Shown here: positions 2,441-28,544 of the stretch, piece by piece
Layout of the letters: every line of letters starts with the position of its first letter
Position numbering within the stretch: the first letter of the stretch is position 1
DNA from: Christensenellaceae bacterium
GTDB taxonomy: Bacteria; Bacillota; Clostridia; Christensenellales; UBA1750
Direction of reading: 5' to 3'
DNA: 29,411 nt
Assembly (NCBI GenBank): GCA_031287285.1
Contig: JAITTC010000267.1
Coordinates: 1 to 29,411 of the forward strand
Notes under the pieces: model-generated
What the model was told of the DNA's origin: nothing
Seen by the model: the letters and a program-made list of their open reading frames with translations, nothing else
Databases searched by the model: none
Position numbers and translations under genes: made by a program

Positions 2441-2469
2441 TTGCATCTTTGGGCAACATCTTTTAAAAT
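2441..2469 (+). promoter_or_regulatory. Sigma-70/A-like promoter for the glnA-like gene
   Basis: TTGCAT (2441-2446), 17 bp, TAAAAT (2464-2469). Confidence 0.6.
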
Positions 2470-2570: not shown

Positions 2571-3848
2571 ATGACCGAAAACCCCGGCGCATTCTTGGGC
2601 GAAAACGACGTGAAGTTCATTCGCCTGGCCTTCTGCGATCTGTTCGGCAGGCTCAAAAACATCTCCATCATGGCGGATGAGTTCGAGAACGTGGCGGCCT
2701 TCGGCAAGAGCTTTGACGCCTCGGGCATTTTTGGCTTTGTCGATACCAAGGGCTCGGATCTTCTCCTCATGCCGGATCTGACGACCATGGCGCTGCTCCC
2801 TTGGCGGCCCCAGCAGGGCGGCAGGGTCGCCAGGGTATATTGCGACATCCTGTATTCAAGCGGCGAGCCCTTCGAGCTCGACGGCAGGCGCATCTTAAAG
2901 AACAGCGTAAGGCGCCTCCAGGCGCTGGGCTACACGGCCAAGATCGCGCTGGAGTGCGAGTTTTATCTCTTCAACCTGGGCGACCAGGGCCAGCCCATTC
3001 TGGCCCCGCACGACCAGGCAGGCTACCTCGACTTTGCCCCGCTCGATAAGGGCGAAAATGTGCGGCGCGAGATTTGCCTGAACCTCGAGCAGATGGGGAT
3101 CAGGCCCTCTTCCTCGCTGCACGAATCAGGCCCCGGGCAAAACGAGATCGACCTGCACCGCAGAAGCCCCATCAAGATGGCGGATGCCTACATCGCCTTC
3201 ACGAACGTGGCCAAAACCGTCGCCTCGAGCTTTGGGCTCTACGCCTCGCTCCTTCCAAAGCCGCTGAAAGATAAGAGCGGCAGCGGCCTGCACGTTTCCA
3301 TCGCCCTTGAAAAGGATGGCGAAAACGTCGTCAAGGGCGAAGGGGGCCTGACCCAGGCAGCCCAGGCCTTCATGCAGGGGATTCTTTCGCGCGTGGCCGA
3401 AATCAGCGCCTTTTTAAACCCCCTGCCGGGCTCGTACTCGCGCCTTGGGCGCTTTGACGCGCCCGGTGAAATCTCGTGGTCGAACCAGAACCTGGCGCAG
3501 CTCCTGCGCGTGGCGCAGTCGGGCGGCGACCGCGGCGCCCACATCGAGCTTCGCTCGCCAGACCCTGCCATGAACCCCTACATCGGCTTTGCCCTGCTGC
3601 TGGAAGCTGGCGCCGAGGGCATCGAAAGGCAGCTTACGCTCCTTCCGGAGGGGGAGGTGCTAGGGAGCCTGCCGGGCAGCCTTGAAAAGGCGGTGGCCCT
3701 GGCGCAGGGTTCCGATTTGGTGAAAAGGGCCCTGCCTTCGCGCTTTGCGGAGCCCTTCCTCTCGCACAAGCTCGGCGAATACGAGAGGATGTTCCGCTCC
3801 GGCGACGCCGAGAGCTTCGAGATCGAGAATGACTTCCCCGTGATCTAA
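2571..3848 (+). CDS. glnA: Glutamine synthetase type I-like protein with degenerate catalytic motifs
   Basis: VKFIRLAFCD, FDASG, ECEFYL, HESGPGQNEID, PKP...GSGLH, IELRSPDPAMNPY. Start placed at ATG 2571 after AAGGAGG rather than 2496. Confidence 0.85.
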   Translation: MTENPGAFLGENDVKFIRLAFCDLFGRLKNISIMADEFENVAAFGKSFDASGIFGFVDTKGSDLLLMPDLTTMALLPWRPQQGGRVARVYCDILYSSGEPFELDGRRILKNSVRRLQALGYTAKIALECEFYLFNLGDQGQPILAPHDQAGYLDFAPLDKGENVRREICLNLEQMGIRPSSSLHESGPGQNEIDLHRRSPIKMADAYIAFTNVAKTVASSFGLYASLLPKPLKDKSGSGLHVSIALEKDGENVVKGEGGLTQAAQAFMQGILSRVAEISAFLNPLPGSYSRLGRFDAPGEISWSNQNLAQLLRVAQSGGDRGAHIELRSPDPAMNPYIGFALLLEAGAEGIERQLTLLPEGEVLGSLPGSLEKAVALAQGSDLVKRALPSRFAEPFLSHKLGEYERMFRSGDAESFEIENDFPVI

Positions 3849-3883
3849 ATCGCCTCGCTTAAGGCCGGAAAGGGGGTACTGCT

Positions 3884-4453
3884 TTGACCGGCGGCGCTTT
3901 GCTGATTTCCTCCAGCGAAAAGGGGCGCCTTGCCCTTCGCGCGCTGCTGGAAGAGGTTCGCCTTCCCTCCATCGAAACCGCGGCCTCCGGCAGCGAGGCC
4001 AGGCGTCTGCTCACGAACAGGCCCTTTTCCCTCGTGGTGGTCAATGCCCCCCTGAGCGGCGAAAATGGCTCGGAGCTCGCGCTGTTCGCCGCCTCTACCT
4101 TGGGGCTGGCTTCGATTTTGCTCGTTCGGCAGGAAGAACTCGACGGCGCGGCCGCCTCGATGGGCGATTCCGGCGTGCTGGCCCTTGGTAAGCCAATCAA
4201 CGGGCAGACCTTTTTGCAGGCGGTGCGCCTTGCGCAGGCGGCGCACGCGAAGATCGCCGCCCTGCAGGAAGAAAACCGCAGATTGCTTGGGCTTTTAGAA
4301 GAACAGCGCCTGGTGAACCGCGCGAAGTGGCTGCTGATCGAAAATAAAGGCCTAACTGAGCCGCAGGCCCACCATTTCATCGAAAAACAGGCCATGGATC
4401 AGCGCATCACCAAGCGGCAGGCCGCGCAAGATATTTTGGATTTATATATTTAG
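3884..4453 (+). CDS. ANTAR-domain RNA antiterminator with pseudo-receiver domain (AmiR/NasT/NitR-like)
   Basis: C-terminal LVNRAKWLLIENKGLTEPQAHHFIEKQAMDQRITKRQAA is a typical ANTAR domain. The N-terminal receiver-like fold has LVVVNAP at the phosphoacceptor position. TTG start after GAAAGGGGG. Confidence 0.88.
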   Translation: MTGGALLISSSEKGRLALRALLEEVRLPSIETAASGSEARRLLTNRPFSLVVVNAPLSGENGSELALFAASTLGLASILLVRQEELDGAAASMGDSGVLALGKPINGQTFLQAVRLAQAAHAKIAALQEENRRLLGLLEEQRLVNRAKWLLIENKGLTEPQAHHFIEKQAMDQRITKRQAAQDILDLYI

Positions 4454-4506
4454 GGCTTTGCCCTATCTCATTTTAACGAAGGAATCTTCAAGGAGGACGC
4501 GGGCAA

Positions 4507-6102
4507 ATGGTGAAATACATCTTCATAACCGGCGGCGTCGTTTCCGGTCTTGGCAAGGGCATCACAGCGGCTTCGCTTGGCAGGCTGCTGAAGGCCCGCG
4601 GCTTCAAGGTCAGCGCGCAGAAGCTCGACCCCTACATCAACGTGGATCCGGGCACCATGAGCCCCTACCAGCACGGCGAGGTCTTCGTCACCGAGGATGG
4701 CGCCGAAACGGATTTAGACCTTGGCCACTACGAGCGCTTCATCGACGAGGACCTCAACAAGTTTTCGAACCTGACCACGGGCAAGGTCTATTGGAACGTC
4801 CTCACGAAGGAGCGAAACGGCGAGTTTCTGGGCGAAACCGTGCAGGTCATTCCCCACATCACCAACGAGATCAAGGGCTTCATCCACTCCGTGGCCGAGC
4901 GTTCGGGCGCCGAGATCCTGCTGACCGAGGTCGGCGGCACCATCGGGGATATCGAAAGCCAGCCCTTTTTAGAGGCCATTCGCCAGGTGGCCATCGAGCA
5001 CGGCCGCGAAAACTGCCTCTTCATCCACGTCACCCTGGTGCCCTACATCAAGTCAAGCGGCGAATATAAATCGAAGCCCACACAGCACTCCGTAAAAGAG
5101 ATGCAGGCCATGGGCCTCTTTCCGGATATCATCGTGGCGCGCTGCGACGAGCCCCTGCAAGACGATATCGTGCGCAAGATCTCGCTGTTTTGCAACGTCA
5201 AGCCGGATTGCGTCATCCCAAACATCACCCTGCCTGTGCTCTATGAGTGCCCCATCATGCTCGAAGAAGCAGGCCTTGCGCGCATCGTGCTGCGCGAGCT
5301 CGGCCTGACCAACAGGGGGCCTGATTTGAGCGATTGGTACGACATGCTCGCGCGCATCCGCGCGCGCAGCAAGAATGTCAAGATCGCCTTGGTGGGCAAA
5401 TACATCAAGCTGCACGACGCCTACCTCTCGGTTGCGGAAGCGCTGCAGCACGCGGGCTACGAAAACGCGGCCACCGTCGAGGTCGACTGGATCGACGCGG
5501 AAGAGATCAGCCCTTTAAACGTGGGCGAAATCCTCGGCGGCTGCGACGGCATTTTGGTGCCCGGCGGCTTTGGCGAGCGCGGCATCGAGGGCATGATTTT
5601 AGCGGCGCGCTACGCGAGAGAAAATAAAATCCCCTATCTGGGCATCTGCCTGGGGCTGCAAATCGCGGTGATCGAGTTTGCCCGCCACGTGCTTCAGATG
5701 CCGGACGCAAACTCCCGCGAGTTTGCCGAAAACGGCCTGCGCAGCGTCATCGACCTGATGCCAGACCAACAGGGCAACCTGCCAAAGGGCGGCACGATGC
5801 GCCTTGGCGCCTACCCTTGCCAGATTAAGCCGGGCTCCAAGATGGCGGCTGCATACGGCGCGCCCCTCATTCAAGAGCGCCACCGCCACCGCTATGAGTT
5901 CAACAACGACTATCGCGAGGAAATGACCAAGCATGGCATGGTCTTAAGCGGCCTTTCGCCAGACGGCCGCCTGGTCGAAGCCATTGAGCTGCCGGACCAT
6001 CGCTTTTTCGTGGGCGTGCAGTACCATCCCGAGTTCAAATCCCGCCCCAATCGGGCTCATCCGCTCTTCCGGGCCTTCATCGAGGCCTCGCTCGAGCAAT
6101 AA
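4507..6102 (+). CDS. pyrG: CTP synthase
   Basis: [65 protein letters not shown]. Confidence 0.99.
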
Positions 6103-6125: not shown

Positions 6126-7304
6126 ATGAAGATCAACTCCAATTTCGAAAAAATGCCCCAAAACTACCTCTTTGCGGAGGTCGGCAAGCGCACGAGCGAA
6201 TACGTCAAGGCAAACCCCGGCAAAAAGGTGCTGCGCATGGGCATCGGCGATGTGGCGGGCCCGCTTGTGCCCGTCGTGGTCGAGGCCATGCAAAAGGCGG
6301 CGGCCGAGCTTGGCCAAAAGAAGAGTTTTAGGGGCTACCCGCCCTATGAGGGCTATGACTTCCTGCGCGAAGCGATTGCCGGCTATTACGCGGGCTTAGG
6401 CGCGCCGATTGACCCGGGCGAGGTCTACGTCAACGATGGCGCAAAGTCCGACGCGGGCAACTTCGGCGACATTTTCGACGTTGACAACGCGGTCCTCATG
6501 CCGGACCCGGTCTACCCGGTCTATCTCGATTCAAACCTCATGAGCGGCCGCCGGATCCTTTACATGAACGGAAGCGAAGAAAACGGCTTTCTGCCCCTGC
6601 CAGACCCCAGCGTGAAGGCGGATATCATCTACCTTTGCTCGCCCAACAACCCGACCGGCGCGGTTTACTCAAGGGAAGAGCTGAAGGCCTGGGTCGATTA
6701 CGCAAACGCCCAGGGTGCGGTCATCCTCTATGATGCGGCCTACGAATCCTTCATCTCTGATCCGGCGCTGCCCCGCAGCATTCTCTCCATCAAGGGTGCG
6801 CGCACTTGCGCGGTCGAGATGTGCTCGATGTCGAAGACCGCCGGGTTCACCGGCGTGCGCTGCGGCTATACCATCATCCCCAAGGAACTCATCCGCGGCG
6901 GGCAGAGCATCGGCGCGCTGTGGCTGCGCCGCCAGGCGACCAAATTCAACGGCGTTTCCTACCCCGTGCAGCGCGGGGCGGAGGCTGCCTTCAGCGAGGA
7001 AGGCTATGCCCAGTGCATGGAGGCCATCGCCTTTTATAAAGAGAACGCGGCCATCATGGGCAAGGCCATTGGCTCCTTCACGAAGTACTTTGGCGGCTCT
7101 CAGTCGCCCTATATCTGGCTCAAGTGCCCAAACGGCCTGAAGTCCTGGGAGTATTTCGACTATCTTCTCAACAGCCTGCAAATCGTGGGCACGCCGGGCG
7201 CGGGCTTTGGCAAGATGGGCGAAGGCTATCTGCGGCTCACCGCCTTTGGCGAGCGCGAGGCCGTGCTCGAAGCCATGGAGCGCATCCAAAAGGCGCCGTT
7301 TTAA
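6126..7304 (+). CDS. dapL: LL-diaminopimelate aminotransferase
   Basis: NYLF, MGIGDV, GYPPYEGY, DGAKSD, DPVYPVY, LCSPNNPTG, SMSKTAGFTGVRCG, PGAGFG..GEGYLRLTAF. Confidence 0.94.
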   Translation: MKINSNFEKMPQNYLFAEVGKRTSEYVKANPGKKVLRMGIGDVAGPLVPVVVEAMQKAAAELGQKKSFRGYPPYEGYDFLREAIAGYYAGLGAPIDPGEVYVNDGAKSDAGNFGDIFDVDNAVLMPDPVYPVYLDSNLMSGRRILYMNGSEENGFLPLPDPSVKADIIYLCSPNNPTGAVYSREELKAWVDYANAQGAVILYDAAYESFISDPALPRSILSIKGARTCAVEMCSMSKTAGFTGVRCGYTIIPKELIRGGQSIGALWLRRQATKFNGVSYPVQRGAEAAFSEEGYAQCMEAIAFYKENAAIMGKAIGSFTKYFGGSQSPYIWLKCPNGLKSWEYFDYLLNSLQIVGTPGAGFGKMGEGYLRLTAFGEREAVLEAMERIQKAPF

Positions 7305-28416: not shown

Positions 28417-28446
28417 CTCATTTTTGTGCGCATTCCTTAGGATGAA

Positions 28447-28481
28447 AAACAGCGCCCTCTTTCAAAAAGAGGGCGCTGTTT
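28447..28481 (+). terminator. Terminator after hslO
   Basis: 16-bp stem AAACAGCGCCCTCTTT-CAA-AAAGAGGGCGCTGTTT. Confidence 0.75.
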
Positions 28482-28544
28482 GCTTAAACGCAGCCCGAGG
28501 CTTCGCGGTAAAAGGCGGAAGGGATGCCGGGTCGATCATCGCGG

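Follow-up and report, generated by a model that had tools for sequence, protein, structure and literature searches.

The GS-like/ANTAR gene pair

The window analysed here is an entire 29.4-kb contig (C164, 29,411 nt) of a metagenome-assembled genome of a Christensenellaceae bacterium (1.68 Mb, 88% complete, about 60% GC). On its plus strand, behind the tail of a split glutamate synthase (GOGAT) operon, lie two adjacent genes. One (2571-3848) encodes a 425-aa protein resembling type I-alpha glutamine synthetase (GSI-alpha), a member of an ANTAR-linked paralogue clade and a candidate metabolite sensor, called GS-like hereafter. The other (3884-4453) encodes a 189-aa NitR-type antiterminator in which a pseudo-receiver carrying Asn in place of the phospho-Asp is joined by a coiled-coil linker to an ANTAR domain. 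The GS-like open reading frame starts with an ATG preceded by AAGGAGG and ends with a stop codon at 3846-3848; the ANTAR frame starts with a TTG at 3884, preceded by GGAAAGGGGG, which leaves a 35-nt gap between the two genes. The pair is probably a poorly understood nitrogen switch of Clostridia.

The product of the second gene matched the Pfam ANTAR domain (PF03861) over residues 138-185 with 55.9 bits (cut-off 27.3), and the Pfam Response_reg domain with 24.4 bits, under the cut-off of 30.2. It could be aligned over its full length with Rv1626 (1s8n; E 3.9e-14) and, more weakly, with AmiR (1qo0; E 9e-5, residues 66-185), and these alignments give it the pseudo-receiver, coiled coil and ANTAR architecture of the AmiR/NasT type. 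The key receiver residues were placed by alignment with Rv1626, an EutV-like protein (6wsh) and one further receiver. Among the residues of a phosphorylatable two-component receiver (D12/D13, D57, T/S87 and K109), Lys109, in the GKP motif, was the sole one kept: the acidic Asp-Asp pair is replaced by Ser-Ser in LLISSSE, the phospho-Asp position is occupied by Asn54 in LVVVNAP (counting the TTG start as residue 1) and the Thr87 equivalent is Val. The phospho-site was Asn in nearly all orthologues of the order and, in a wider set of species, in 67 of 74 sequences (Ser in two, Asp in five). None of the 12 HATPase_c matches of the genome was on the window contig, and no linked histidine kinase was found at any of the 109 loci examined. 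The 35-bp spacing, the missing acidic pair, the Asn at the phospho-Asp position and the lack of a histidine kinase in the window had all been pointed out in the initial annotation of this DNA, and they were confirmed.

Judged from these residues, the receiver domain is predicted to be incapable of phosphorylation, so that its input would have to be a partner protein or a ligand. There are precedents for such a control: the RNA binding of AmiR and NasT is gated by an adjacently encoded ligand-binding partner. Like AmiC-AmiR of P. aeruginosa (1qo0) and NasS-NasT of Paracoccus denitrificans (PMC3795266), the present locus places a pseudo-receiver ANTAR gene beside another gene. However, AmiC and NasS have a periplasmic-binding-protein fold and sense amides and nitrate, respectively, whereas the neighbour in the window is a GS-fold, dodecamer-type protein, and no partner of the periplasmic-binding-protein fold was found at the 109 loci.

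Homologues of the ANTAR protein were present in 37 of the 61 genomes of the same order, and a GS homologue lay directly upstream, on the same strand, at 26 of the 29 order-level loci that were fetched. A wider scan of species-representative genomes identified about 593 loci, the best 80 of which were used for gene-context counts and 74 for the scoring of residues. A GS homologue was directly upstream at 75 of these best 80 species-level loci, which include members of Oscillospiraceae, Ruminococcus, Sedimentibacter, Romboutsia, Defluviitalea, Peptococcaceae and Treponema. The conserved operon reads GATase-FMN-(purA)-Fer4-PyrRedox-GXGXG-GS-like-ANTAR-(pyrG-dapL), often with a divergent glnN. The GS-like/NitR pair also persists at loci without GOGAT genes, next to a divergent glnN at about 17 of them and as a lone pair at many others, and NitR is rarely without a GS-like neighbour (8 of 109 loci). 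The pairing is not due to chance. The co-occurrence check proposed in the initial annotation was thereby run with a positive outcome, both for the gene pair and for the Asn-type receiver, and every linked GS proved to be non-canonical (see below). At three loci (L053 of genome G023, L103 and L170) the ANTAR gene directly follows the GXGXG gene and no GS-like gene is present; the phospho-site residue in L053 is His.

Active site and predicted 2-oxoglutarate pocket of the linked GS clade

The GS-like protein of the window carries both GS Pfam domains (PF03951 and PF00120) and is about 45% identical to the GS of Paenibacillus and of M. mazei. It scored 290 bits with TIGR00653, the NCBI GlnA equivalog, whose cut-off is 429. 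Several active-site residues are replaced (E. coli numbering, followed by the window residue): S53 by G52, H210 by L183, R339 by L308, R355 by H324, and the flap E327 by D296, in a flap that is one residue shorter. The catalytic positions Ser53, Glu327 of the flap, Arg339 and Arg355 are thus all changed, whereas they are invariant in the 19 stand-alone GSI of the order. In addition, D58 stands at the position of Arg62, the residue of feedback inhibition in B. subtilis. All six metal ligands (E128, E130, E185, E192, H241 and E326) are kept, as are Arg321 of the glutamate site, Arg344 and Arg359; because of the intact metal ligands this copy is not clearly dead. The name 'degenerate glnA' given to the gene in the initial annotation is therefore apt for its sub-cut-off score and its lost active-site residues, and goes too far if taken to mean a dead enzyme. 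Compared with a genome of the same genus, the GS-like gene had a ratio of non-synonymous to synonymous substitution rates (dN/dS) of 0.084, and pyrG one of 0.081. By this measure it is under purifying selection as strong as that on pyrG, and is still functional.

Twenty catalytic positions were tabulated in 27 operon-borne GS copies and 19 stand-alone GSI of the order; with the 74 copies of the wider set, this makes 101 linked GS copies. The stand-alone enzymes were invariant at 18 of the 20 positions. Among the 27 linked copies of the order, Ser53 was lost in all, the flap Glu in 18, and at least one metal ligand in 13 (E129K/A/N, E131A, E212R/A/K, H269R/Q/S), the triple change E129A/E131A/E212A being one of the combinations observed. 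None of the 74 copies of the wider set was canonical: a metal ligand was lost in 25, the flap Glu in 39, and the equivalent of the B. subtilis R62 in all 74. Overall, no linked GS out of 101 was canonical and 38 had lost a metal ligand. These copies group as a clade of their own, and scored 225-351 bits with Pfam Gln-synt_C, compared with 385-471 bits for canonical GSI. One genus has a canonical GSI, a linked copy and GlnN together. Since the catalytic residues decay and yet purifying selection is strong, the linked clade appears to be retained for a role other than catalysis, with catalysis itself dispensable.

In some relatives (L070, L071 and L073, of genus g5; L065, L066 and L067), a canonical GSI is followed by a second, shorter ANTAR protein, the receiver of which likewise seems unphosphorylatable, with Cys, Gly, Thr or Asn at the phospho-site. 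The association of a GS gene with a downstream pseudo-receiver ANTAR gene is therefore a theme wider than the degenerate paralogue alone.

The best matches of the GS-like protein among solved structures included the archaeal GSI-alpha enzymes M. mazei GlnA1 and M. thermolithotrophicus GS (E about 1e-82). In M. mazei GlnA1, 2-oxoglutarate is contacted by F24, R26, R87, R172, R173 and S189 (PMC11957540), and equivalent residues serve in the M. thermolithotrophicus enzyme (PMC10799026). In the alignment, these residues correspond to F16, R18, R79, R165, R166 and S182 of the window protein, which form a predicted pocket, and every one of the archaeal contact residues has a conserved counterpart in the GS-like clade. 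At the position of the B. subtilis Glu36, a residue that would block the ligand, the window copy has the small residue Ser32. The arginine of the PWRP motif, reported to be absent from bacterial homologues (PMC10799026) and absent from Paenibacillus GS (7tdp), is present in the GS-like clade. Among the 101 linked copies, R87 was kept in 99, R172 and R173 in all and S189 in 97, and the full signature of the pocket was found in 78; R87 was kept in just six of the 19 canonical GSI of the order. With these counts, the predicted 2-oxoglutarate pocket is better conserved in the linked copies than the active site. The archaeal GS are active enzymes, in which 2-oxoglutarate drives both assembly and activity; in this they differ from the linked clade, where catalysis seems to have become dispensable.

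A candidate RNA target and the surroundings of the pair

ANTAR proteins have been reported to recognize two tandem hexaloop hairpins, with A at loop position 1 and G at position 4, which overlap a terminator and lie upstream of nitrogen genes (Ramesh et al. 2012, PMC3369931). In relatives of the present organism, the region upstream of the GATase gene contains a hairpin with a C-AAAGGC-G apex, which immediately follows a sigma-70-like promoter. The loop and the 3' arm of this element can pair alternatively with a downstream strand to form a terminator. We collected 29 instances in relatives, 5' of the genes for the GOGAT GATase, glnN, GS-like and purA, and covariation supported both alternative helices, including at pairs beyond those imposed by the selection rule. 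The loops observed (AAAGGC, AAAGAC and AATGGC) all conform to the A1/G4 hexaloop rule and overlap a terminator. One hairpin per unit is conserved where the published substrate has two in tandem; occasionally, the element occurs as two complete tandem units. Strict scans of the genome for dual A1/G4 hexaloops with a terminator gave scattered matches, none of which was near nitrogen genes. A loose scan for single hairpins was too noisy to be used, and the informative searches were a restricted version of it and a covariance model, R1, built from the element instances of ANTAR-containing genomes.

In the genome studied here, the strongest copy found with R1 was 5' of oppBC (31 bits; C22:1183-1237, L086). 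Its position suggests that the oligopeptide ABC permease, hence peptide uptake, belongs to the same nitrogen regulon. A second copy (24 bits, loop AATGGC) was found on contig C176 (L033, 2860-2913, minus strand), 5' of a 632-aa frame that encodes AmtB fused to a GlnK-like PII domain; this leader also has a strong terminator, with a predicted energy of -27.9 kcal/mol (z -6.6). A variant of the element, with the loop AAAGAC, lies 5' of glnN and is kept in the sister genome. The element was also present 5' of GS-like and glnN genes at loci that had not been used to train R1. Of the 37 ANTAR-positive genomes 26 contained it, as did 3 of the 24 ANTAR-negative ones. Terminator/antiterminator leaders, as expected of a clostridial NitR module, are thus seen at opp, amtB and glnN in this organism and at GOGAT, glnN and GS-like genes in its relatives. 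The initial annotation had anticipated dual-hairpin ANTAR sites in front of the GOGAT operon. Neither feature was observed in this genome: the unit is a single hairpin, and the recognizable sites precede glnN, amtB and opp rather than the GOGAT and GS-like genes.

R1 elements were also met in other positions. At two unrelated loci (L139 and L119) one lies just 3' of the ANTAR gene, in L139 in front of pyrG, whereas in L119 no gene was identified behind it; in the window, there is only a weak hairpin (4451-4465) between these two genes. In genome G020, an R1 element is located just 5' of a canonical GSI gene (G020:C13:97442-97500), and no homologue was found in this genome with a NitR query; a more diverged ANTAR protein may serve there. 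Lastly, a bidirectional terminator-like hairpin beside a repeat array of the window (28440-28489) scored 21 bits with R1. This weak score is due to its AAGCAAAC...GCGCC stem, and the hairpin is probably an ordinary terminator.

The 172-nt spacer between the GXGXG gene and the GS-like gene contains a promoter-like site read from the sequence (TTGCAT-17 nt-TAAAAT, 2441-2469, plus strand), which is kept in genome G001 of the same genus and was not called by a consensus promoter scanner. Downstream of it, folding of the plus strand predicted a leader hairpin (2505-2545) made of a GCCCCGC...GCGGGGC stem-loop (2505-2535) followed by TTCTATTTT, with CAAAGGCG (2520-2527) at its apex. This structure (-31.8 kcal/mol, z -1.9), also kept in G001, looks like a terminator and not like a canonical antiterminator site. 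The apical 8-mer CAAAGGCG was given no weight as evidence for the element, because about 50 chance occurrences of it are expected per genome. No match was obtained in an Rfam scan of the window at gathering thresholds.

The GOGAT tail occupies positions 1-2398 of the plus strand and comprises, from Pfam matches, a 4Fe-4S protein truncated by the contig end (1-450), a pyridine-nucleotide oxidoreductase (447-1685) and a GXGXG-domain protein (1682-2398). The first half of the operon is on contig C169 of this assembly, which joins the start of the window as judged from synteny with the sister genome; purA, for adenylosuccinate synthetase, lies inside the split operon in several lineages (C169:1-1275; L036, L037, L041 and L047). 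The ANTAR gene is followed on the same strand by a small hairpin, TAGGGC-TTT-GCCCTA (4451-4465), with a T-rich tail reaching 4475 (-8.3 kcal/mol, z -2.3), a weak terminator, then by genes assigned from protein-family matches to pyrG (CTP synthase, 4507-6102) and LL-diaminopimelate aminotransferase (6126-7304). These two genes, whose products use glutamine and glutamate respectively, are often found 3' of the GS-like/ANTAR pair in relatives.

A candidate nitrogen switch and its alternatives

The sequence data establish the gene anatomy, the co-conservation of the pair, a decayed catalytic site, a conserved pocket and the RNA element; from these we infer a contact between the two proteins, a ligand and a sign of regulation as follows. 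The GS-like and NitR genes would be the regulatory end of a nitrogen-assimilation operon. NitR would bind and stabilize the C-AAAGGC-G hexaloop hairpin, whose loop has A1 and G4. Without NitR, the loop and the 3' arm would become the 5' strand of an intrinsic terminator; NitR binding would thus permit RNA polymerase to read through into glnN, amtB and opp in this organism and, in relatives, into the GS-like gene and the GOGAT operon as well. The most likely partner of NitR would be the GS-like protein encoded 35 nt upstream, a GS paralogue in which catalysis may no longer be selected, while the fold, the core of the glutamate site and the inter-subunit 2-oxoglutarate pocket would be. It would read nitrogen status, as 2-oxoglutarate and/or glutamine, and hold or release NitR, in the way that AmiC acts on AmiR and B. 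subtilis GS on TnrA and GlnR. We give about even odds to the reading in which a metabolite sensor derived from GS gates a NitR-type antiterminator. The more specific proposal, that the GS paralogue has become a dedicated receptor (for 2-oxoglutarate at the inter-subunit pocket, perhaps for glutamine at the crippled active site) and gates the ANTAR antiterminator directly, is put forward tentatively, with chances slightly below even. The initial annotation had suggested that the GS could be the sensor for an antiterminator of the GOGAT cluster; co-occurrence and the departure of the linked GS from a canonical active site favour the first part of this idea, and the second part does not fit the locus, where the operon that contains the pair begins with the GOGAT genes, so that these are not a downstream target.

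The module combines known kinds of regulation: NitR antitermination, AmiC/AmiR-style gating and GS acting as a sensor. The nitR gene of C. saccharobutylicum NCP262 belongs to a glnA-nitR(-gltAB) cluster (Stutz et al. 2007, as cited in PMC6316151), and NitR was proposed to induce the GS and GOGAT genes by antitermination at nitrogen limitation, in a way that senses nitrogen by means described in the same source as 'not fully understood' (PMC6316151). The window shares with this cluster an ANTAR gene directly 3' of a type I GS gene, here after the 35-nt gap, and linkage to glutamate synthase genes. By description, the only basis on which the two were compared, the C. saccharobutylicum GS was cloned as an active enzyme, whereas the GS of the window is a member of a clade whose catalytic site is decaying. 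A homologous cluster order is found in C. thermocellum (Clostridium/Acetivibrio), where the ANTAR gene Clo1313_2030, the GSI(-alpha) gene 2031 and the GOGAT genes 2032-2036 are co-expressed (PMC4676874, PMC9888227), with a type III GS gene nearby and an AmtB-PII fusion (Clo1313_2260) elsewhere. According to the title of Rydzak et al. 2017 (Metab Eng 41:182), deletion of the type I GS 'deregulates nitrogen metabolism' in this species. An interaction between 2030 and 2031, or a pseudoenzyme status of 2031, is unreported; by analogy, what is published on this cluster fits a regulatory role of the linked GS. In the deletion strain, nitrogen genes reportedly rose despite high glutamine, which would be consistent with a GS-like protein that restrains NitR.

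A GS is also a regulator in B. subtilis, where GSI-alpha is the nitrogen sensor that controls TnrA and GlnR through protein contact (PMC9249791). There, however, an active and glutamine-feedback-inhibited GS acts on MerR-type DNA-binding proteins, whereas the output here would be an RNA-binding antiterminator, and the key Arg62 of the B. subtilis enzyme is lost in every ANTAR-linked GS examined. No description of a complex between a GS pseudoenzyme and an ANTAR protein was found in the literature searched.

Several observations weigh against a GS-like sensor acting on NitR and the RNA element. The association of the element with ANTAR genes is partly circular, because R1 derives from ANTAR-containing genomes and because the genomes compared are relatives of one another. 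The element is one hairpin, and characterized ANTAR sites have two (PMC3369931). R1 found no element in the GS-like leader of the window (E<=10, filters off) or in the GOGAT-GATase leader of this genus. In a mirror-tree analysis of 46 loci, GS-like and NitR were correlated (r 0.48, partial r 0.30, permutation p 0.004), but the partial correlation of NitR with the neighbouring GXGXG protein was higher (0.53), and the analysis therefore shows no specific co-evolution signal. A model of the complex between two GS-like chains and NitR residues 1-135, computed from custom alignments, had a median score of 0.22 against a mark of 0.32, and weighs neither way.

The main rival explanation, in our ranking, is that the GS-like protein is a working, if diverged, GS or a gamma-glutamyl ligase co-transcribed with GOGAT, and that NitR receives its signal from elsewhere, for example from the AmtB-fused PII on contig C176 or from a small molecule bound to the pseudo-receiver. 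The window copy, with its six metal ligands, R321, R344 and R359, may indeed retain some activity, and its place as the last structural gene of a GS/GOGAT operon, suited to the GS/GOGAT cycle, is also that expected for a working GS. Apart from it, GlnN (type III, on contig C169) was the sole GS detected in this 88%-complete genome, and ANTAR genes follow fully canonical GSI genes in some relatives. We nevertheless regard this explanation as rather unlikely: metal ligands have been replaced non-conservatively (E129K, H269R, E129A/E131A/E212A) in half of the orthologues of the order, which yet stay intact beside NitR, Ser53 and the glutamine-feedback Arg are lost in all, the linked copy is kept as a third GS even in genomes with canonical GSI and GlnN, and the allosteric pocket is more conserved than the catalytic site.

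Two further explanations were considered. GS enzymes can be regulated through their oligomer state (PMC10651883, PMC11957540), and the constant linkage to GOGAT genes and to a divergent glnN would suit a GS-like protein that acts as a regulatory subunit or decoy on GlnN or on the split GOGAT, its adjacency to NitR reflecting shared regulation only. This is improbable, as the GS-like/NitR pair stays together where the locus has no GOGAT genes and NitR is so rarely found alone. Still more improbable, to the point of being hardly credible, is that NitR is an ordinary two-component regulator phosphorylated at a non-canonical residue by an orphan kinase encoded elsewhere. The 12 HATPase_c genes of the genome speak for it, and so does the Asp retained at the canonical site in five of 74 orthologues, which to that extent speaks against a receptor-gated NitR; but nearly all orthologues lack the acidic pair and the phospho-Asp as well as Thr87, no kinase is linked to the gene at 109 loci, and the Response_reg score is under the Pfam cut-off.

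The question of how NitR-type antiterminators sense nitrogen in Clostridia dates from the 1990s. Should the GS-like protein prove to be the sensor, nitrogen control would be explained in a large share of the gut, rumen and biomass-degrading anaerobes, and so would the puzzling C. thermocellum phenotype to which the title of Rydzak et al. 2017 refers. A GS-gated NitR would be the master nitrogen switch of hundreds of species of Clostridia and some of Spirochaetes, and a third type of ANTAR input, beside kinases and AmiC/NasS-type binding proteins. It would also be a plain example of an enzyme that has evolved into a receptor, and would offer metabolic engineering a point of control over amino-acid overflow. 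To this family the window adds a less-decayed GS-like member, from Christensenellaceae-like bacteria.

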